Both the position numbers and the translations under genes were made by a program. This document shows positions 7,217 to 39,969 of a DNA stretch of 64,000 bases, in pieces. This DNA comes from an uncultured Acidobacteriota bacterium (GTDB lineage: Bacteria; Acidobacteriota; Thermoanaerobaculia; UBA5066; Gp7-AA6), in contig CAVPSG010000002.1 in assembly GCA_963708395.1 (NCBI GenBank), forward strand, positions 1,167-65,166, in the 5' to 3' direction. Numbering within the stretch: the stretch's first letter is position 1; every line of letters starts with the position of its first letter. The notes under the pieces were generated by a model. The model was not told the origin of the DNA. It worked only from the letters and a program-made list of their open reading frames with translations, and ran no database searches.

Positions 7217-7244
7217 GTCATCCTGAGCCGAAGCGAAGGATTCT
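7217..7244 (+). repeat. GTCATCC-type REP monomer
   Basis: gtcatcctgagccgaagcgaaggattct, 3 bp after the stop of the acyltransferase gene. Confidence 0.85.
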
Positions 7245-7306
7245 GCTTTCCGCTTGCGCGTTCGCTCGAGTGCGCCATGATATGGCGACACCTTTCCGAG
7301 CTCCGC

Positions 7307-8080
7307 ATGCGCCGGTTCTCTTCGACCCTCTTGCTCGCTCTCACCGCGTCCGCTGCGGTCGCCCAGACGCCGAAGCCGCCACCCAAGCCCGCCGACACCG
7401 AAGTGTGGACGCCGGTGCCGGTGGTGATCACTCCAGGCCGCGCGAACGCCGACGCGCCGTCCGACGCGATCGTCCTCTTCGACGGCAAGAACCTCGACGA
7501 ATGGCTGTCCGCGAAGGACGAGTCGCCGGCGAAGTGGACCGTCGCGAACGGCGTCGTCACCGTGAACAAACCGTCGGGCGACATCCATACGCGACGCAAG
7601 TTCACGAACTATCAGCTACACATCGAGTGGCGCATTCCTCCCGGCATCACCGGCGAGGGACAGGAGCGCGGCAACAGCGGCGTCTATCTCGCGTGGACGC
7701 CCGACTTCGGCTACGAGCTGCAGGTGCTCGACTCGTACGAGAACAAGACATACGTGAACGGGCAGGCCGGCAGCATCTACAAGCAGTTTCCGCCGCTCGT
7801 GAATGCGATGCGGAAGCCCGGCGAGTGGCAGACGTACGACGTCGTCTGGATGGCGCCGACGTTCAAGCCCGACGGCTCAGTCAACACGCCGGCGTACGTC
7901 ACCGCGCTTCAGAACGGCGTGCTGATTCAGAATCACGTCGCGTTGCGCGGCGACACCAAGTACATCGGTCAGCCCGAGTACAAGGCGCACGGCGCCGCGG
8001 CGATTCTCCTACAGGCGCACGGCGATCCCAGCGCGCCGATCAGCTTCCGCAATATCTGGGTTCGCGAACTCGGCAAATAG
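7307..8080 (+). CDS. DUF1080 / 3-keto-disaccharide hydrolase family exported protein
   Basis: Signal peptide, then PSDAIVLFDGKNL, GNSGVYL, YELQVLDS, GEWQTYDV, LLQAHG and FRNIWVREL. Confidence 0.9.
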   Translation: MRRFSSTLLLALTASAAVAQTPKPPPKPADTEVWTPVPVVITPGRANADAPSDAIVLFDGKNLDEWLSAKDESPAKWTVANGVVTVNKPSGDIHTRRKFTNYQLHIEWRIPPGITGEGQERGNSGVYLAWTPDFGYELQVLDSYENKTYVNGQAGSIYKQFPPLVNAMRKPGEWQTYDVVWMAPTFKPDGSVNTPAYVTALQNGVLIQNHVALRGDTKYIGQPEYKAHGAAAILLQAHGDPSAPISFRNIWVRELGK

Positions 8081-8152
8081 TCATCCCGAGCGAAGCGAGG
8101 GATCTGCAGTCCCGACCGACAACTGCAGAGCCCTCGCTCTGCTCGGGATGAC
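8080..8152. repeat. Inverted dimer of GTCATCC-type REP (BIME/REPIN-like)
   Basis: gtcatcccgagcgaagcgagggatctgcagt-11nt-actgcagagccctcgctctgctcgggatgac, between convergent genes. Confidence 0.93.
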
Positions 8153-9448: not shown

Positions 9449-9474
9449 GTCATCCCGAGCGCAGCGAAGGATCT
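9449..9474 (+). repeat. GTCATCC-type REP monomer
   Basis: gtcatcccgagcgcagcgaaggatct, in the divergent intergenic region. Confidence 0.9.
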
Positions 9475-9524
9475 GCTTTCCCCGATCTTGCCAGCGTGCG
9501 CGGCGACAGTAGCATAGTGCTTCT

Positions 9525-31704: not shown

Positions 31705-33415
31705 ATGCGCGCGCGTGGTTGGTTGATCGGCGTCTTGGCGATCGTGATTCCGGCGATAGCCCAAGCGCAGTTGAGGGGGATCATTCGTGACGGCCCAACG
31801 CAGGCCGGCCTCGGCGGCGCTGTCGTCACGGTGCTGGACGCCGCGGGGGCGACGACCGCCCGCGCGATCACTGGCGCCGACGGACGCTTCACGATCGCGA
31901 GCGACAGCCGGCGCGGCGAGCGTTCGCGTCACGCGCATCGGGTACCGGCCGGTCAACGCGCCGCTTCCGGCGGCGGGGAAGCCGCTCGATCTGACCATGG
32001 ATCGCATTCCTCCGATGCTCAACGCGGTCAAGGTCACCGACAGCGAGCTCTGTCCGGGATCGGCCGATCGCGGCAGCGCGTTCGATCTCTGGGATCAGGC
32101 GCGCGCGGGCCTGCTCTCGGCGGTCGTCGCGCGCGAGCTCAGGCCGGCGCAGGCAAAGATGGTGATGTACGAGAGTCGTCTCGCACCGAACGACGAGCGC
32201 GTTCGAAGCCAGACGAAGAAAATTTCCTCCGGCCGAACGACGCGTCCCTTCATCGCGTCGCAGACGCCGATCTACTTCGCTCGGCACGGCTATATCCTCG
32301 ACGATCCGTCGGTGCGGATCTACAACGCGCCGGACGCGGATGTGCTGCTCGACGAGTCGTTCGCAACGACGCACTGCTTCCACGTGCAGCGCGCCGACGC
32401 CGAGCATCCGGGGCAGATCGGCCTCGCGTTTTCGCCGTCCCCGGGGCGCGATACGATTCCGGACGTCACGGGTGTGATCTGGATGGATGCGTCGGTCCCG
32501 CAGCTGCGGTCGCTCGACTTTCTCTACACGGCGCTCGAGCGGGCGGCCATCTCGGCGAAGACCGGCGGCCACATCGAGTTTCGGTCGATGCCGAATGGCG
32601 TGTCGTTCATCGAGCGGTGGCATCTGCGTCTTCCGACGCTCGAGATCCAGCCGCTGACCGCAAGCGCCAGCCGCGCGCCGCAAGACCAGCTTCGGCCGGT
32701 GTCGCGCCAACAGCGAACGGACTATCGAGTTCACGAGATCGTGGAAGCCGGCGGAATCGTCCTCGAGGCGAAGTGGGACGACAGCACGAAGTTCACCGAC
32801 ACTCCCGCGATCGTGCGCGGCACCGTGACGCAGCGTCGGACGAAGGCTCCGGTCGCAAATGCCGTCGTCACGCTGGTCGGGACGCCGGACACGGTGCTGA
32901 CGAACGCCGCCGGCGAGTTCGAGATCGCCGCCATCCCGGGGAAGTACAGTCTGTCGGCGCGCGACACGGCGCTCAAGTCGTATGTCCAGTCGCGCATCGT
33001 GAGCCAATCAGTGGATGCGATTCGCGCACAAACGACGATGGCGCAGATCGAGCTGGCGCCGATCGCCGACGTCATCGAGGACATCTGTCACGACATCCGC
33101 GTCAGCGACAGCACGGTGGTGCTGCTGGGTCACGTATTCGCTCCGGACCGTCCGCGCATTCCGAACGGTTCGGTCGCATCGACGTGGCAGGAGTACTTTC
33201 TCGCGGGCGCGAAGGAGATCGCAATTCGCGGCGTGCGGCGCGACTCCGACGTCGACGATGAGGGTCGCTTCGTTGTATGCGCGGTCAAGCTCCACCAGCC
33301 GGTCAAGCTTCGGCTCACGTCGGGCAAGGAGGTTCTGGCCGACACGACGATCCGGCTCGATCGCACGGACCTCACGCAGCCGTTCGAGTGGCGCATTGCG
33401 CCGAAGCCTCGGTAA
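31705..33415 (+). CDS. Exported protein with carboxypeptidase-regulatory-like domains; frameshift at ~31920
   Basis: AQAQLRGIIRDG…AVVTVLD…TGADGRF joins SVRVTRIGYRP. A second VRGTVTQ…TNAAGEF domain follows. Confidence 0.75.
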
Positions 33416-33431
33416 CCTGCATACCAAGTGC

Positions 33432-33461
33432 GCTGATCCCGAGCGCAGCGAGGGATCTGCA
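33432..33461 (+). repeat. Degenerate GTCATCC-type REP at the 3' end of the GIY-YIG gene
   Basis: gctgatcccgagcgcagcgagggatctgca. The core is identical to the other copies but the tag is altered (gctgatcc instead of gtcatcc). Confidence 0.88.
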
Positions 33462-33754
33462 ATTCCCCCGTCGTTACGCCAATCCTCGGACAGATCTATC
33501 CACGTCGGATTGACGGACGTGATGAGCGCGATTCGTTTCGCCCGCGTCCACGATTTGATCTGCTTTTCCGCTCGAATGCCGTCGAGTGGGTTGCTAAACA
33601 TCGTGTAATAGACGAGACGGTGGACGTGGTATCGTGTCGTGAATGCGCTCCAGCCCGAGCGGTGCTGCTCTAGGCGCACTTCGAGGTTGTTCGTGAAATC
33701 GGTGTACAGGGTTCTCGACCGACTCGCGAGGATGTAGACGTAGAACGTTCGCAT
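33434..33754 (-). CDS. Small stand-alone GIY-YIG nuclease (UPF0213-like), REP-flanked, possibly degenerate
   Basis: MRTFYVYILASRSRTLYTDFTNNLEVRLEQH…FTTRYHVHRLVYY…AEKQIKSWTRAKRIALI…NPTWIDLS. The expected stop at 33434-33436 reads TCA, so the ORF runs on to 33008. Confidence 0.88.
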
Positions 33755-33818
33755 GCGCGCACGCTGCGTACAAAGGACGCTGGTGCGTGATCGAACGATT
33801 GCGAGGCGTGCGCTTGAG

Positions 33819-33896
33819 TTGCAGATCCCTCGCTGCGCTCGGGATGACAGCGGATGACAACGGGATTGCAGATCCCTCGCTGCGCTCGGGATGACA
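33819..33896 (-). repeat. Two direct tandem GTCATCC-type REPs upstream of the GIY-YIG gene
   Basis: ttgcagatccctcgctgcgctcgggatgaca occurs at 33819-33849 and 33866-33896, with an extra ggatgaca between them. Confidence 0.95.
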
Positions 33897-33902
33897 AGGG
33901 GG

Positions 33903-36341
33903 CTAGGTCCGCCGAAGCGCCTGCACGGGATCGACGCCGAGCGCGCGTCGCGCAGGAAGCAGACACGCTGCCGCCGCGATCGTGACGAGCAGCGCCGCGA
34001 CGCCGACGAAAGTGAGCGCGTCGCTCGGCGGCGTGTTGTAGAGAAGGCCGCGCATCAACTTCGTGACGGCCAGCGACGTGCCGACGCCCGCCACGAGGCC
34101 GGCGGCCACCAGCCCCAACCCCTGGCGCATCACGAGCCACACCACCGACCCGCCGTCTGCGCCGAGCGCGACGCGGATGCCGATCTCGGTGAGTCGCTGA
34201 TTCACGGTGTAGGCGATGACGCCCGCGAGGCCGGCGGCGGTGATGATGAGCGCGAGCAGCGCGAATGACGTCAGCAGCGCCGTCGTCACGCGCGGCTCCG
34301 AGAGGCGAGTGCCGCGCACTTGGTCGAGGGTCTGGATCGACACGACGGGCTGACGCGGATCGAGCTCGCGAACGGCGTTACGAATCGCCGCGCCCATCGG
34401 CGACGGGTCGTTCGTCGTCCGTACGAGAACGCGAAAGTCACTGGACGGGCTGACGAAATACGGGATGTAGATCTCGTCGGTGATGTCTTGCGACAGGCTA
34501 TTTTGATGGACGTCGCCAACGATGCCGACGACGGTCAGCCAGCGCCGGCCGCCGTCGATCGAGAGCTGTTGGCCAACGGCGTCGCCCTTCGGCCAATTGG
34601 TCGCGGCAAGCCGCTGGCCGATGACGGTCGACACGTTCGACGTGTCGCGATCTGCGTCGGAGAAGGAGCGGCCGAGAAGCACCGGGACGCCGATGGTCTT
34701 GAAGTAGTCGCCGCTCACGAGCGTCACGTCGCTCTTCGGCAGGCGATCGGCCGCGACGTCCTGGCCGCGAATCTGGAATGGCTGCGTCCCGGGCTGGCCC
34801 GCGTTCAGCGGAAAATCGGTCGATAGCGCGACCGACGTCACACCGGGTTGCTGCGCGATCCGTTGATAGAGTCGGTCGGCGAATGAACGAATGAGCGGAC
34901 GCTGGTCGGTGGTGACCGACGGATTCGAGTAACGCGTCCAATCGAGATCGACGCGTGCCGTGAGCACGTTCGACACGACATAGCCGCCGTCGACGCGTTG
35001 AAGCTTCACGAGGCTCCGGACCATGAGGCCCGCGCCAACGAGCAAGACGAATGCGATGCCGACCTGCACGCCGACGAGAATGCCGCGCGCTCGGCCGTCG
35101 CCGCGTGTCGACGTCGCCGTGGTGCTTCCGGCGCGGAGTGCGTCGGCGAGCGAGCCGGTTCGGCGCCGCATCGGCATCACGGCCGCCGCGAGCCCGACAA
35201 TGATGCTGACGACGAACGCAAACGCGAGCACGGTCGGATCGATCGCGATCTCGTTGGCGCGGGGCGTGACGCGGGTCGCGAGGCTTCGCAGGAGTCCGAG
35301 ACCGCTGTATGCGATCCCGACGCCGAGCAGTCCGCCGGTGAGGCTGACGCAGAGACTTTCGACGGCGAGCTGGCGAAAGATTCGCCCCGCACCAGCGCCG
35401 AGCGCGGCGCGCAAAGCGATCTCACGCTGCCGGCGCAGCTGTCGAGCTAGCGTGAGGTTCGCGAAGTTTGTCATCGCGATGAGCAGCACGAAACCGGCGG
35501 CGGCGAGCAGTGTGAGGAAGAGCGTTCGCGATTGCTGCTGGAGCTCCGTGCTGAGCGGCGTGAGCGCGACGTCGAGCTTTCTCGCGGCAGGGTAGTTGGC
35601 CGGGTATTCGGCGTGGAGGCGACCCGAGATGGTGGCGAGCTCCGTGCGCGCCTGCTCGATCGTGGCGCCCGGCGCGAGCAGCGCGAACTGCTGGAGCATG
35701 CGTCCATTTCGGAGGTTCATCACGCCGTCACGGAACGGACACGCGCCGGCGGGCATCCAGATGTCGTTGTTGTCCGGATACGTCGGCAGGGGTGGGAGCA
35801 CGCCGATCACGGTGTGCGTCTTGTCGTTCATCGTGAACGTGGTGCCGACCACGCTCGGGTCGCCGCCGAAATGCTCCATCCAGTAGCGGTAGCTGAGCAG
35901 CACGACGGGCGCCGCGCCGACCTCTTCCTCGCCGGGCGCGAAGACGCGGCCATAAATCGGCTTCACGCCGAGCAGCGTGAAGAAGTTGTCGGAGGCGACG
36001 CCGGTCTGGACGCGCTGCGGCTCGCCGCGCCCATACAATTGAAAGGGCATCGAGTGGTACTCCGCGACGGCGGCAAAGCTCTTCGTCTGCGCGCGGTAGT
36101 CCTTGATCTCGGGTACGGAGAAGCGACTGTCCGGTCGAGTCGCGGACGGCTGCGTCACGTGGACGAGTCGCGCGTCGCCGGCGTAGGGCAGGCGGCGAAG
36201 CAGTACGCCGTGCACCATGCTGAACGCGGCGGTGTTGGCGCCGACACCGAGCGCGATCGTGAGGATCGCCAGGAGGGAGAAGATCGGGGTCGCGCGCAGC
36301 GTTCGCGTCGCGAAGCGAAGGTCCTGCCAGAGGTCGCGCAT
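33903..36341 (-). CDS. ADOP family duplicated ABC permease (MacB/FtsX-like)
   Basis: MRDLWQDLRFATRTLR, LTIALGVGANTAAFS, REIALRAALGAG, EIGIRVALGA and LPARRALGVDPVQALR. Confidence 0.93.
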   Translation of the reverse strand: MRDLWQDLRFATRTLRATPIFSLLAILTIALGVGANTAAFSMVHGVLLRRLPYAGDARLVHVTQPSATRPDSRFSVPEIKDYRAQTKSFAAVAEYHSMPFQLYGRGEPQRVQTGVASDNFFTLLGVKPIYGRVFAPGEEEVGAAPVVLLSYRYWMEHFGGDPSVVGTTFTMNDKTHTVIGVLPPLPTYPDNNDIWMPAGACPFRDGVMNLRNGRMLQQFALLAPGATIEQARTELATISGRLHAEYPANYPAARKLDVALTPLSTELQQQSRTLFLTLLAAAGFVLLIAMTNFANLTLARQLRRQREIALRAALGAGAGRIFRQLAVESLCVSLTGGLLGVGIAYSGLGLLRSLATRVTPRANEIAIDPTVLAFAFVVSIIVGLAAAVMPMRRRTGSLADALRAGSTTATSTRGDGRARGILVGVQVGIAFVLLVGAGLMVRSLVKLQRVDGGYVVSNVLTARVDLDWTRYSNPSVTTDQRPLIRSFADRLYQRIAQQPGVTSVALSTDFPLNAGQPGTQPFQIRGQDVAADRLPKSDVTLVSGDYFKTIGVPVLLGRSFSDADRDTSNVSTVIGQRLAATNWPKGDAVGQQLSIDGGRRWLTVVGIVGDVHQNSLSQDITDEIYIPYFVSPSSDFRVLVRTTNDPSPMGAAIRNAVRELDPRQPVVSIQTLDQVRGTRLSEPRVTTALLTSFALLALIITAAGLAGVIAYTVNQRLTEIGIRVALGADGGSVVWLVMRQGLGLVAAGLVAGVGTSLAVTKLMRGLLYNTPPSDALTFVGVAALLVTIAAAACLLPARRALGVDPVQALRRT

Positions 36342-36440: not shown

Positions 36441-36512
36441 GTCATCCCGAGCGCAGCGAAGGATCTGCAGGCAAGGCGGGAATAGCAGATCCCTCGCTGC
36501 GCTCGGGATGAC
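36441..36512. repeat. Inverted dimer of GTCATCC-type REP
   Basis: gtcatcccgagcgcagcgaaggatctgc…gcagatccctcgctgcgctcgggatgac, followed by an extra ggatgaca. Confidence 0.93.
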
Positions 36513-36544
36513 GGGGATGACAAAGTGGGGACCGAACCCTTATC

Positions 36545-36923: not shown

Positions 36924-36939
36924 TTGGAGATTTCCGCCC

Positions 36940-38711
36940 ATGCCGCTCTCTCCGCTGACACGCCTGCGCTCTGCGCTGGCCTTCATCACTGGTTGGTTCA
37001 GCTCGCACGAGCGCGACTCTCGCCTCGCCGAGGAGATCCGCTTCCATATGGAGATGGAGGCGGAAGCGTCCCGCTGCAAGAGGACGTCCTGCGCGACGTC
37101 CGGCAGGCGCTCTGGATTCTCTTCGGCGCCGCCGCGGTGGTGCTCGCGGTCGCCTGCGCGAACATCTCCAACCTCTGGCTGGCGCGGGCCGCCGCGCGAG
37201 ACCGCGACACCGGCATCCGCATCGCATTGGGAGCGGGGCGGGCGCGGATTCTTCGGCAGGCCGTGGCCGAGGGCCTCCTCGTCGCGGCCGCGGCCGCCGC
37301 CGTCGGCCTGCTCCTCGCGGCGCAGGCGGTTCCGATCGTCCTTCGCCTCATCCCATTCGACTACATCCCCGCCGAGGCGGACCCGCGCGTCGACGTCTGG
37401 GCGGCGACATACGGCGTCGCGATCTGTATCGCCGCGGGCGTCTTCTTCGGCCTTCTGCCGGCCGCGCGCTGGCGTCGAATCGGCGCGGCGGTCTCGGGCG
37501 GAGCGAGCCCGCGGACGACCTCGGATCCCCGGGCGCGCCGCATGCGCCGGCTCTTCCTGGCCGGCCAGATCGCGCTCGCCGTGGTGGTGACGTCCAGCAC
37601 GACCCTTCTCGTCGAGAGCTTCCATCGCCTTCTCGCCACCCCGACGGGGTTTCGGTCGGACGGCGTCGTGACGCTGCGCGTTGCGCTCCCGCGGCTGCGG
37701 TACGAATCGGAGAGCCGCGCGCGCGGCCTGCTCCAGAACCTCCTCGAGAATCTCGAAAGCGATCGGACGATCGCGCGCGCGGGAGCCGTCAGCAGCCTCC
37801 CGCTCGATCGCGCGACGCCGAGCCGGCGGCTCGAGATCGAGGGCCGTTCCGAACCGGCGGCGGCCGGCGTCTTCGACGCCGACGTGCTCGCCGCGTCGGC
37901 GGGTTACTTCGAGACGCTCGGCATCCCGACGCTCGCCGGGCGGAAGATCGCGGAGACCGACACGGCGGCCAGCCCGCCCGTCGCCGTGATCAACCGCACG
38001 ATGGCCGACCGATTCTTCCCCGGTGAGAACGCCGTCGGCCGGCGGCTTCGTGTCTCGAACGACGCCGCATGGCGAACGATCGTCGGCGTCGTGAGCGACG
38101 TTCGCCAGCGGAGCCTGGAACAGCCGCCGCGCCAGGCCCTCTTCGTCCCGCTCGCCCAGGCCGACCCGGCCCCGCGATCCCTCGCTGTCGTCGTGAACGC
38201 CGCCGGAGGAGCCGAAGCGGCGGCGGCGGCCGTGCGCCGCGCGCTCGCGCGCCTCGACCCGGAGATTCCCGTCTTCGCGGTCGAGGAGATGGATCGGCGG
38301 ATTTCGGACTCTCTCGCCGGCCGCCGGCTCGCGGCTTTCCTGCTGCTCTTGCTGACCGCAGCCGCGATCGGCCTCGCGGCCCTCGGCACGTCGGCGGTCG
38401 CGGCGTACGACGTCGTGCAGCGGCGGCGGGAGATCGGGATCCGGATGACGCTCGGCGCCCGGCCCGATCGAATCTCGCGCGACGTCCTCGCCGAATCGCT
38501 GCGCACGGCCGTGGCGGGAATCGCGGCCGGGCTCGTCCTCGCAGTTGCAGCGAGCCGGATCCTTTCGGCGCTTCTCTCGGACACGTCGGCCGGTCTTTCC
38601 TCGCTTGCGAGCGGCGCCGCGGCGCTCGCCGGCGCGACCGTTCTCGCGAGCTGGGTTCCCGCCCGGCGCGCGGCGAAGACCGACCCGGCAATCTCGATTC
38701 GGGGAGAGTAA
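36940..38711 (+). pseudogene. ADOP permease: N-terminal ~42 codons joined out of frame to the C-terminal part of an ADOP gene at ~37066
   Basis: …RDSRLAEEIRFHMEMEAE ends abruptly. Another frame resumes at VPLQEDVLRDVRQALWILFGAAAVVLAVACANISNL. The first periplasmic domain is missing. Confidence 0.85.
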
Positions 38712-38758: not shown

Positions 38759-39361
38759 CTACCGCAGCGTCAGCTGGCCGGCGCCGACATGAGCATGGAG
38801 GCGGTAAGGGCCGCTGCCCTCCCTCTTGAAGGAACGAAACAGACCGCCGTGCTCCTCGCCGAATGGATCGCCGTCGACCTCGCCGGTGAACACCGACGCG
38901 TCCACACGCCCGTAGTCGGCCGGGTTGCCCAGCCGGACCGTCAGATCGCCCGCGTGGAGCTCGATGTCCTTGTTGCCGACGACGTTCTCGACGTTCACCT
39001 CGCCGAACGGGATCCGGGCGTAGAGATCGGTGCTTTTCGGAATGCCGATCGTGATCGTGAGGTCGTTGTGCGGGCCTCCCGAAACGCGCAGATCGGCCGC
39101 GCCCTCATGGCGATCGAGTCGCACCTTCAGCTTCCTCGCTTCCGGAGCGCTCTTGCCCGACAGGGTGACCGTGATCCTGTCCTGGTCGCTCCCCACGATC
39201 TCGATGTCGCCCGAGCGGACGTGGAGGTTCAATCGGCTGCCCGAGGCGAAATCTGCGGAAAAGCCCGTGTCTACGATGTCCGTGACTTCGACCCGCGGCG
39301 CGGCGGCCGCGGACGCTGCGACGAGCAGCCCGGCGGCGAAGAGAAGAAGGAAGCGGCGCAT
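38759..39361 (-). CDS. Exported beta-strand repeat protein (DUF4097/adhesin-like)
   Basis: Signal peptide, then SGDIEIVGSDQDRITV, GEVNVENV and GDLTVRL. Confidence 0.6.
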   Translation of the reverse strand: MRRFLLLFAAGLLVAASAAAAPRVEVTDIVDTGFSADFASGSRLNLHVRSGDIEIVGSDQDRITVTLSGKSAPEARKLKVRLDRHEGAADLRVSGGPHNDLTITIGIPKSTDLYARIPFGEVNVENVVGNKDIELHAGDLTVRLGNPADYGRVDASVFTGEVDGDPFGEEHGGLFRSFKREGSGPYRLHAHVGAGQLTLR

Positions 39362-39424
39362 ACACTTACCCTCCTTCCCGCAAGTACGCAGATGGCGGGC
39401 GGATGTTCCCCCGGGGAGGAGAAC

Positions 39425-39485
39425 GGGCGGGGACGAGCCCCGCCCCTACCATCCGACGCGGTAGGGGTGGCGCTTGGGGCCGCCC
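39425..39485. repeat. Two GTAG-type REPs
   Basis: gggcggggacgagccccgcccctac (39425-39449, minus orientation) and gtaggggtggcgcttggggccgccc (39461-39485). Confidence 0.8.
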
Positions 39486-39489
39486 GACC

Positions 39490-39969
39490 TTAGGTCTCGT
39501 TCGCGATCGTGATCTTGAACCCGTCCGGATCGGTCAGCGAAATGACGCGCGCGCCCCAGGGCTGATCGGTCGGTCCCTGATCGAGCGTGCCGCCTTTCGA
39601 CTCGATCCGCTTCGCGATGTCGTCGACACTCTTCTTCGTCGTGCAGAACATCCGGAAGCCTTCGCCCTTCTTCCGGTCGCGGCCCTTCTTCCAGTCGTCC
39701 TGCCCGATCATGAACGACACGTCGCCGGCCTTCAGCGACACGCCGACGACTTTTCCCTCATCCTTCCACGTCTCCTCGACGTCGAACCCGAGCACGTCGC
39801 GATACCAGCCGAGGCTCTTGTCCAGATCGCCCACCGTGAAGCTCGGTGACGCCGATCTCAAAGTCAGTGACCGGGCTCCCCCGTTGCCGGACTTCGAGGC
39901 CGTCGCCTTCGGTTTGCGGGGAGCCGCCTTCTTCGCACGAGCCGTCTTCGCCGATTTCTTCGTCGCCAT
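39490..39969 (-). CDS. VOC/glyoxalase family protein with a Lys/Ala-rich N-terminal extension
   Basis: TVGDLDKSLGWYRDVLGF and DQPWGARVISLTDPDGFKI. Confidence 0.88.
   Translation of the reverse strand: MATKKSAKTARAKKAAPRKPKATASKSGNGGARSLTLRSASPSFTVGDLDKSLGWYRDVLGFDVEETWKDEGKVVGVSLKAGDVSFMIGQDDWKKGRDRKKGEGFRMFCTTKKSVDDIAKRIESKGGTLDQGPTDQPWGARVISLTDPDGFKITIANET

Follow-up and report, generated by a model that had tools for sequence, protein, structure and literature searches.

The DNA considered here, which we call the window, is a stretch of 64,000 nucleotides (nt) from an uncultured Acidobacteriota bacterium of the genus Gp7-AA6 (GenBank assembly GCA_963708395.1, contig CAVPSG010000002.1). 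It corresponds to C2:1167-65166 of a genome of 4.51 Mb with 69% G+C, assembled in 3 contigs (C1 to C3). Nine hairpin repeats with a GTCATCC tag lie within it, and three of them bracket a stand-alone gene of the GIY-YIG nuclease type, referred to below as ssn, with their tags pointing outward. We think, with a probability of roughly 80%, that this cassette (33433-33895) is a member of the published Ssn/SRM system, in which a nuclease gene of ~95-106 residues is accompanied by cognate hairpins (SRM), and that it is a decayed member, gained or lost as a unit. It sits between two convergent genes, one for a CarboxypepD_reg protein (31787-33415, + strand) and the other for a MacB/FtsX permease (33903-36341, - strand). 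An earlier note on this DNA had described a GIY-YIG gene flanked by inverted repeats between convergent host genes, and the sequence confirms it with the following features.

33433-33462, + strand: 3' end hairpin (SRM), downstream of ssn; 2 mismatches, both in the tag (CTGATCC for GTCATCC)
33437-33754, - strand: ssn-type GIY-YIG gene, 106 codons by analogy with homologs (PF01541, E=2.7e-10)
33755-33818, - strand: leader of 64 base pairs (bp) between the upstream hairpins and the ssn start codon
33819-33848, - strand: inner one of the tandem pair of 5' end hairpins (SRM), identical to the consensus (0 mismatches)
33866-33895, - strand: outer 5' end hairpin (SRM), a perfect consensus copy with 0 mismatches

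Read in the direction of the gene, the cassette is formed by two hairpins, the leader, ssn and an inverted hairpin, with the GTCAT tag outermost on both sides; the two upstream motifs and the downstream one flank the gene within 500 bp. A leader of comparable length is also present in the homologous loci L056, L062 and L067. Next to the inner 5' hairpin there is a tag-only fragment, GGATGACA (33852-33859), and between the end of the tag of the outer one and the stop codon of the MacB permease gene there are ~7 nt; this gene is itself bracketed by hairpins (33819-33895 and 36441-36512). At the opposite border, the last 8 codons of ssn (ADPSLRSG) are encoded within the 3' hairpin, in whose tag, reading GGGATCAG, a G at 33435 replaces C and destroys the TGA stop. 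Because this mutation removes the stop codon that the tag normally supplies, the actual open reading frame (ORF) from 33754 stays open to 33008 (248 codons), running antisense to the neighbouring gene past the lost stop. The ~106 codons that the earlier note had given for the gene hold only by analogy with homologs that end in the GGATGAC tag, not for the frame as it now stands.

The protein defined by this analogy (106 residues, homologs ranging from 91 to 145) has PF01541 over residues 4-73, the first 73 residues matching (E=2.7e-10), and no other domain. It is 69-77% identical to the proteins P0001-P0010 and 47% identical to the protein of locus L023 (E=1e-24); downstream of the L023 gene stands CGTCATTCCCGCGAAAGCGGGAATCCAG, which matches exactly the published consensus of NTS, the hairpin motif of Neisseria. 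The single PF01541 domain, the L023 homolog with its exact NTS and the hairpins on both flanks are the reasons for assigning the gene to the Ssn family (cd10448), the L023 protein being indirect evidence as far as homology to SsnA is concerned. A matching model for the protein was found neither in NCBIfam nor in PADLOC. By sequence, the nearest solved structures in the PDB are the UPF0213 proteins 1zg2 BH0048 (E=4.6e-6) and 1ywl EF2693 (E=1.5e-3). Proteins of the UPF0213/YhbQ type are also single-domain GIY-YIG proteins of ~100 residues and keep the YxG glycine, but they are only distant relatives; we know of no association of this type with hairpins.

Ssn proteins are small single-domain GIY-YIG nucleases that cut single-stranded DNA site-specifically (Chenal et al. 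2025, Nat Commun 16:2388, PMC11893778). They bind a hairpin motif (NTS in Neisseria, SRM generally) in single-stranded DNA and cut just upstream of the CGTCAT tag; the characterised members from Neisseria and Wolbachia cut a few nucleotides 5' of a (C/T)GTCAT tag, and the enzymes are inactive on duplex DNA, on RNA and on the reverse strand (PMC11893778). The same work found SRM near 71% of Ssn homologs, on both sides in 42%, likened NTS-ssnA-NTS to an insertion sequence, and offered as a hypothesis the comparison with repetitive extragenic palindromic (REP) sequences, REP-associated tyrosine transposases (RAYT) and bacterial interspersed mosaic elements (BIME). A 2026 preprint uses SsnA loci as a benchmark class. 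The window cassette resembles the Ssn/NTS-SRM system, such as SsnA of N. meningitidis, in having a single-domain GIY-YIG protein of ~95 residues with (C/T)GTCAT-tagged hairpins on both sides, tags outward, and a motif scattered between genes, whether solo, in doublets or in tandem arrays. The repeats of the Ssn system are the CGTC-tagged REPs described in 2013 by Di Nocera, De Gregorio & Rocco (BMC Genomics 14:522, PMC3733652). Like them, the window repeats are short, palindromic stem-loops, intergenic and multicopy, that bear a (C/T)GTC tag at one end and are found both as monomers and as inverted dimers; unlike in that work, which names no partner enzyme, the partner gene lies here inside a repeat pair. 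The earlier note had taken it that no dedicated enzyme was established for (C)GTC-tagged REPs and had proposed a GIY-YIG enzyme for this role. The first statement is out of date (PMC11893778), and the proposal is correct but a rediscovery, since the pairing of nuclease and hairpin had already been published.

The association of hairpins and gene extends well beyond the window. It was studied at 27 homolog loci from Acidobacteriota, Gemmatimonadota, Chloroflexota, Planctomycetota, Alpha- and Gammaproteobacteria, Bacteroidota and Desulfobacterota, and at nearly all of them the gene has GTCA-tagged hairpins beside it, on one flank or on both. With a crude detector, a tagged hairpin was found within 250 bp at 21 of the 27 loci, and on both sides at 12. 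The density of tagged hairpins was 4.2 per kilobase (kb) up to 250 bp from the homologs against 0.27/kb beyond 600 bp, a 15-fold enrichment, which bears out the expectation that homologs are flanked by tagged palindromes more often than background. The stems vary by lineage yet stay complementary (CCC/GGG, CCT/AGG, TCC/GGA, ACCCT/AGGGT). Besides, Ssn proteins 61-77% identical to that of the window occur in at least five different gene contexts, and the hairpins at cassette ends come in tandem runs of 1-6 copies with periods of 32-47 bp. In one metagenome-assembled genome (MAG) of the Gemmatimonadaceae (L015:1-470), two ssn cassettes stand in direct tandem, the end of one copy and its hairpins being immediately upstream of the next.

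Gene and repeats also occur together across genomes. Among 41 related genomes, 13 have an ssn homolog (1 of the 11 within the same genus), and the median repeat count is 13 (up to 143) in those with ssn versus 1 in those without it (Mann-Whitney p=2e-4 overall, p=2e-3 within the family). Fisher's test on the co-occurrence of ssn and repeats (11/13 vs 5/28) gives p=8e-5. One of these relatives, G019, has 93 repeat copies and two ssn genes, with long tandem arrays of hairpins in the same orientation and periods of ~49, 110, 128 and 160 bp, for example at C1:1348104-1348733, C1:1796208-1796671, C1:1918494-1918713 and C2:543026-543807 of its own contigs.

Whether the cassette behaves as a unit can be read from orthologous sites, which were obtained as metagenome contigs through exact-protein look-ups and one metagenome scan. 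The nearest named homologs of the flanking gene are from Gemmatimonadaceae MAGs, and on that evidence the host, a soil lineage, would probably be of Gemmatimonadota type. The gene has no ortholog in the 11 same-genus reference genomes, where a DNA search matched only repeats. The flanks of the window cassette are collinear with L062, L056, L064, L069, L070 and L072 at 72-85% nucleotide identity, and both empty and filled sites, which the earlier note had suggested looking for, are found among the relatives.

Window: cassette present, ssn (-), opposite orientation
L062, L056-L061 and the contig of P0005: cassette present, ssn (+), collinear with the CarboxypepD gene
L064/L070/L071: 9-bp spacer between the convergent stop codons, no hairpin
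L069: 41-bp spacer between the convergent stop codons, no hairpin
L072: 18-bp spacer with a half-hairpin remnant, GCGCTCAGGATGAC, 4 nt from the permease stop
Contig of P0125: 27-bp spacer, from gene calls only

In L062 and L056, both flanks run collinear with the window, but ssn aligns to that of the window on the opposite strand. At the site in L064/L070/L071, L069, L072 and the contig of P0125, no cassette was found, and since the unit fills a spacer that is 9-41 bp long in the nearest relatives, it is cleanly gained or lost as a whole, hairpins included, under either of two histories. In a tree built from the flanking protein (584 columns), the window and the empty L069 are sisters (support 100/99), and every locus filled in the (+) orientation belongs to a clade separate from them (support 100/99). 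Two events account for these data if the cassette was inserted twice, independently and in opposite orientations; one old insertion followed by 2-4 clean losses and one inversion also accounts for them, with at least 3. Recombination between the outermost inverted hairpins of a cassette like that of L056 would yield exactly the arrangement of the window. In the window, in L062 and in the remnant of L072, the outer tag and the permease stop are 4-7 nt apart, which speaks either for common descent or for an insertion that was aimed at a hairpin already resident there. A tree of the Ssn proteins was tried for separating inversion from independent insertion, and its relevant node is an unresolved polytomy; nor do the nucleotide identities of ssn decide between the two histories. 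No target-site duplication is visible at the cassette junctions, which are too diverged for mapping at the level of single bases.

Other changes at the same locus involve hairpins too. The L056-L058 lineage has lost most of its MacB permease gene (812 amino acids (aa)) by a deletion, with the left breakpoint 4-6 nt beyond a hairpin tag and a 91-bp remnant of the 5' part of the gene left in place (L056:3302-3423 vs window 33867-33899 and 36112-36202). L056, L064/L070 and L072 have a solo hairpin immediately upstream of the CarboxypepD gene; the window, L062 and L069 lack this hairpin.

The state of the window copy of ssn was judged by residue conservation against 120 homologs. Position 19, the glycine of the YIG motif, is Gly in 120/120 of them and Asp in the window (G19D); position 59 is Ala in 119/120 and Gly in the window (A59G); and the window has V20F, with Phe at position 20 in 0/120. 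Y7, Y17, R27, H31, E63 and N82 are intact, so that G19 is the one residue of the GIY...YIG catalytic core (Tyr, Tyr, Gly, Arg, His, Glu, Asn) that is not kept. Moreover, in 63 of the 120 homologs, which end in ...RSG, the downstream hairpin supplies the TGA stop as part of its GGATGAC tag. With the stop codon inside the hairpin tag in about half of the homologs, gene and site are physically coupled and therefore one mutation in the tag damages both, as has happened in the window.

The GIY-YIG gene is single-copy in the genome, and the remaining repeats of the window lie apart from it as solos and gene-less doublets.

7217-7247, + strand: solo hairpin variant with a CCT/AGG stem and a 4-nt loop (1 nt longer), 3 nt past the stop codon of a gene
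8080-8152: gene-less hairpin doublet, tags outward, 13-bp spacer; 8080-8109 (+) with 8123-8152 (-)
9449-9478, + strand: solo hairpin whose stem has one mismatch; it lies at the 5' end of an MFS gene on the minus strand
36441-36512: gene-less hairpin doublet, tags outward, 12-bp spacer; 36441-36470 (+) with 36483-36512 (-)

All nine copies reported in the earlier note were recovered, at most 1 nt away from where it had placed them. Seven match the 30-nt consensus GTCATCCCGAGCGCAGCGAGGGATCTGCAA with up to 3 mismatches, the threshold used here, against 0 expected (100 shuffles); the nine are completed by the variant at 7217 and by the arm at 8123-8152, which has diverged more. With an intact tag, as against the CTGATCC version, the hairpin reads TGTCATCCCGAGCGCAGCGAGGGATCTGCA. 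Both doublets share the tags-outward geometry of the cassette, so that the likeness drawn previously between repeats around a gene and repeats around a short spacer stands, and as single strands they fold into long hairpins (-34.5 kcal/mol, z=-9.6, for 8080-8152; -35.4 kcal/mol, z=-8.9, for 36441-36512). An extra tag fragment adjoins the second doublet at 36514-36521. This doublet is missing in L064/L070, which have 12 nt in place of ~92; L062 was also considered as an empty site for it and discarded as not clean, with a decayed hairpin and unrelated C-rich DNA there. The first base of the doublet at 8080 is the G of the TAG stop of a 3-keto-disaccharide hydrolase gene (8078-8080), and the listed ATG of the MFS gene (9451-9453) is the CAT of the hairpin tag at 9449; host gene signals and hairpin tags overlap at both places.

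The exact family, with tail GGATCTGCA, has only these nine copies genome-wide, all inside 29.3 kb, a clustering far beyond chance (of the order of 1e-17 or less; 2e-19 was computed for ten copies). A sister variant with tail GGATCCCGAG, the same tag and stem and a 4-nt loop is scattered in ~10 copies on C2 and C3. Its sites outside the window include C2:103160, 141625, 725663 and 2570015 and C3:509245, 515790, 543167 and 551344; the tail of this sub-family is GGGATCCCGA(G/A)CTC, and no second ssn gene in the genome accompanies it. The single hairpin is predicted to be a 5-bp stem, ATCCC/GGGAT, around GA-GC-GNA-GC-GA, that is, tandem G-A pairs and a GC-GNA-GC mini-hairpin, and we refer to it as the GA/GNA type. 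GNA loops and sheared G-A pairs give DNA mini-hairpins extra stability. A scan for perfect 7-bp stems after GTCA gave 134 matches, similar to control tags, and was uninformative because the real stem contains G-A pairs. Two further repeat families of the genome share the GAGCG(N)AGCGAG core. There is a dispersed repeat of ~50 nt, GACTCGCG..GGGAGCCGGAGCGCAGCGAGGGGATCAGGCGAGCGGTCG, in at least 15 copies (C2:308425, 495187, 740295, 740441, 1164758 and a dozen more), and a local cluster of seven copies of GCGAGCGACCCGAGCGAAGCGAGGGACGGCGAGTC within 24 kb (C2:2239788-2263493). In addition, palindromes of heptamer-like units (CAGTTCTCAGTTCCGGAACTGAGAACTG) are found at C1:65840, C2:184691, C2:1352360 and C2:1994436.

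How a cassette of this kind might move can be outlined from the literature and from its geometry. The hairpin would form in single-stranded DNA, where Ssn would bind it and nick 5' of the tag; with the tags outward, the nicks are predicted to fall exactly at both outer borders of the cassette, on opposite strands. With end sites on opposite strands there is one cleavable site per strand, and therefore the cassette could not be excised as a single-strand circle in the way IS608 is. GIY-YIG enzymes hydrolyse DNA without a covalent intermediate, as established for the superfamily, so that none is left for strand transfer. If Ssn drives movement at all, nick-primed copying or homing-type repair between hairpin-marked sites might, speculatively, be preferred over transposase chemistry. 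The nearby solo and doublet hairpins of the window are probably gene-less derivatives that arose locally. We regard it as a possibility, at somewhat under even odds, that hairpin-ssn-hairpin cassettes are self-mobilising via a hairpin-guided hydrolytic nuclease, with the doublets as their non-autonomous derivatives.

A stronger version would make the cassette an autonomous transposon that is still active in this genome, with the GIY-YIG enzyme acting like RAYT or an IS200/IS605 transposase and the doublets being non-autonomous copies that resemble REPINs; this seems very unlikely to us. It can call on the inverted hairpin ends with outward tags, on doublets of the same geometry, on presence and absence at orthologous sites in opposite orientations and on the confinement of all nine exact-type repeats within 29 kb of the gene, and the insertion-sequence analogy had already been raised (PMC11893778). 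The cassette is like an insertion sequence in being a discrete unit, bounded by inverted ends, that some orthologous sites have and others lack, but there are not several near-identical copies with a target-site duplication: only one gene copy exists, no duplication is seen, and the insertion is older than ~20% nucleotide divergence from the sister lineage. The protein has G19D/V20F/A59G, the stop is lost and the 3' tag is mutated, and the candidate autonomous element of the earlier note is thus not supported as one that works at present. The cleavable strands of the end hairpins are opposite, with the reverse strand uncut (PMC11893778), which makes IS608-like same-strand excision impossible, and the hydrolytic chemistry of the superfamily is a further obstacle. 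With RAYT/REPIN and IS200/IS605 elements the cassette does share a small gene between inverted hairpin repeats, gene-less inverted doublets elsewhere and hairpin recognition in single-stranded DNA; in contrast to their HUH Y1 enzymes and GTAG REPs, it has a hydrolytic GIY-YIG enzyme, a GTCAT tag and end sites on opposite strands. A RAYT-type system proper was rejected, as the only ORF of the cassette is GIY-YIG, with no HUH protein, and the tag is GTCAT and not GTAG. From the idea of a GIY-YIG enzyme in the RAYT role, what survives is the dedicated partner of (C/T)GTC-tagged hairpins, whereas 'peel and paste' on the same strand, as by RAYT, is a misfit.

Ssn might instead be a domesticated host nuclease that polices single-stranded DNA (transforming or conjugative DNA coming in, or replication intermediates), as proposed for Neisseria, with mobility being incidental. 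In N. meningitidis, SsnA lowers transformation by DNA whose gene is NTS-flanked (PMC11893778), and hairpins that mark exchange-controlled loci would agree with the bracketed MacB permease gene of the window, with its deletion in L056 at a breakpoint 4-6 nt from the tag, and with the persistence of the cassette at the locus in one clade through ~25% nucleotide divergence. We consider this rather unlikely, given that the window copy is altered at invariant positions, that ssn is absent from 10 of the 11 same-genus genomes, unlike a needed host function, and that PADLOC and NCBIfam give no match. It is scarcely credible, on the other hand, that the hairpins are ordinary REP-like terminators or mRNA-stabilising elements that lie beside a GIY-YIG gene by coincidence. 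A 15-fold enrichment beside homologs across many phyla with lineage-specific stems, the co-occurrence of ssn and repeats in relatives, a stop codon inside the hairpin tag in about half of the homologs and cleavage demonstrated biochemically in four species (PMC11893778) all oppose it, and at the level of the family it is refuted by that work together with the density enrichment, even if the repeats sit tight at gene ends and between convergent genes and several relatives are repeat-rich without ssn.

Several observations weigh against our assignment of the cassette to the Ssn/SRM system. The window hairpin is of the GA/GNA type, outside the published pattern, and the published Ssn biochemistry concerns other hairpin types. 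The published degenerate SRM pattern matches 0 of the 9 window repeats, and as a finder it was abandoned here, its 46 matches in the genome looking like chance; it matches the flanks of 4 of 32 subclade loci, against 13 of 32 for a pattern of the GA/GNA type. By standard nearest-neighbour folding, the single hairpin has no unusual stability (-4 kcal/mol, z=-0.19). Copy number is low in comparison with published systems (9 + ~10 vs hundreds). The covariation of protein and repeats across genomes, which the earlier note had suggested testing, holds for the 41 relatives in general but not for four that carry repeats without a detectable ssn, namely G012 (64 copies), G014 (31), G022 (33) and G007 (18), of which G022 is 100% complete. 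That Ssn would recognise these repeats as its cognate sites is argued from their position and co-occurrence.

Moreover, unlike published Ssn genes, the window copy is without the YIG glycine, the stop codon and one tag. Because the invariant glycine is Asp, two near-invariant positions are changed and the 3' tag and stop are lost, the gene is most likely inactive, as far as conservation can tell, and the window protein is probably an Ssn member by descent, not by activity. The genome is only 58.7% complete despite its 3 contigs, which suggests insertion/deletion (indel) errors in the sequence. Two ORFs in different frames (36924-38711 and 38789-39493) together make up a second MacB/FtsX permease, whose orthologs are single genes of 886-887 aa, and this split together with the low completeness suggests indel errors or real pseudogenes. 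The key changes of ssn are substitutions and not indels, and therefore sequence errors are unlikely to explain them.

In our opinion, membership of the Ssn/SRM system adds something, although modestly, to what is known of it, in the GA/GNA hairpin variant and in the series of empty, filled and inverted sites. The GA/GNA hairpin is widespread and was overlooked by the published SRM search pattern; therefore, a survey that relies on this pattern finds too few members of the system in Acidobacteriota, Gemmatimonadota and the soil lineages related to them. If the cassettes were indeed self-mobilising, the locus would preserve the record of two independent insertions, oppositely oriented, at the same spacer of 9-41 bp, or else of one ancient insertion after which the cassette was repeatedly and cleanly excised and also flipped, and the mechanism would be unlike both HUH 'peel and paste' and DDE transposition, the end sites being cleavable on opposite strands. 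One orthologous site gives a natural series (empty, filled(+), filled(-) and half-hairpin remnant) that bears on the mobility of Ssn cassettes, which was only hypothesised in the original paper.

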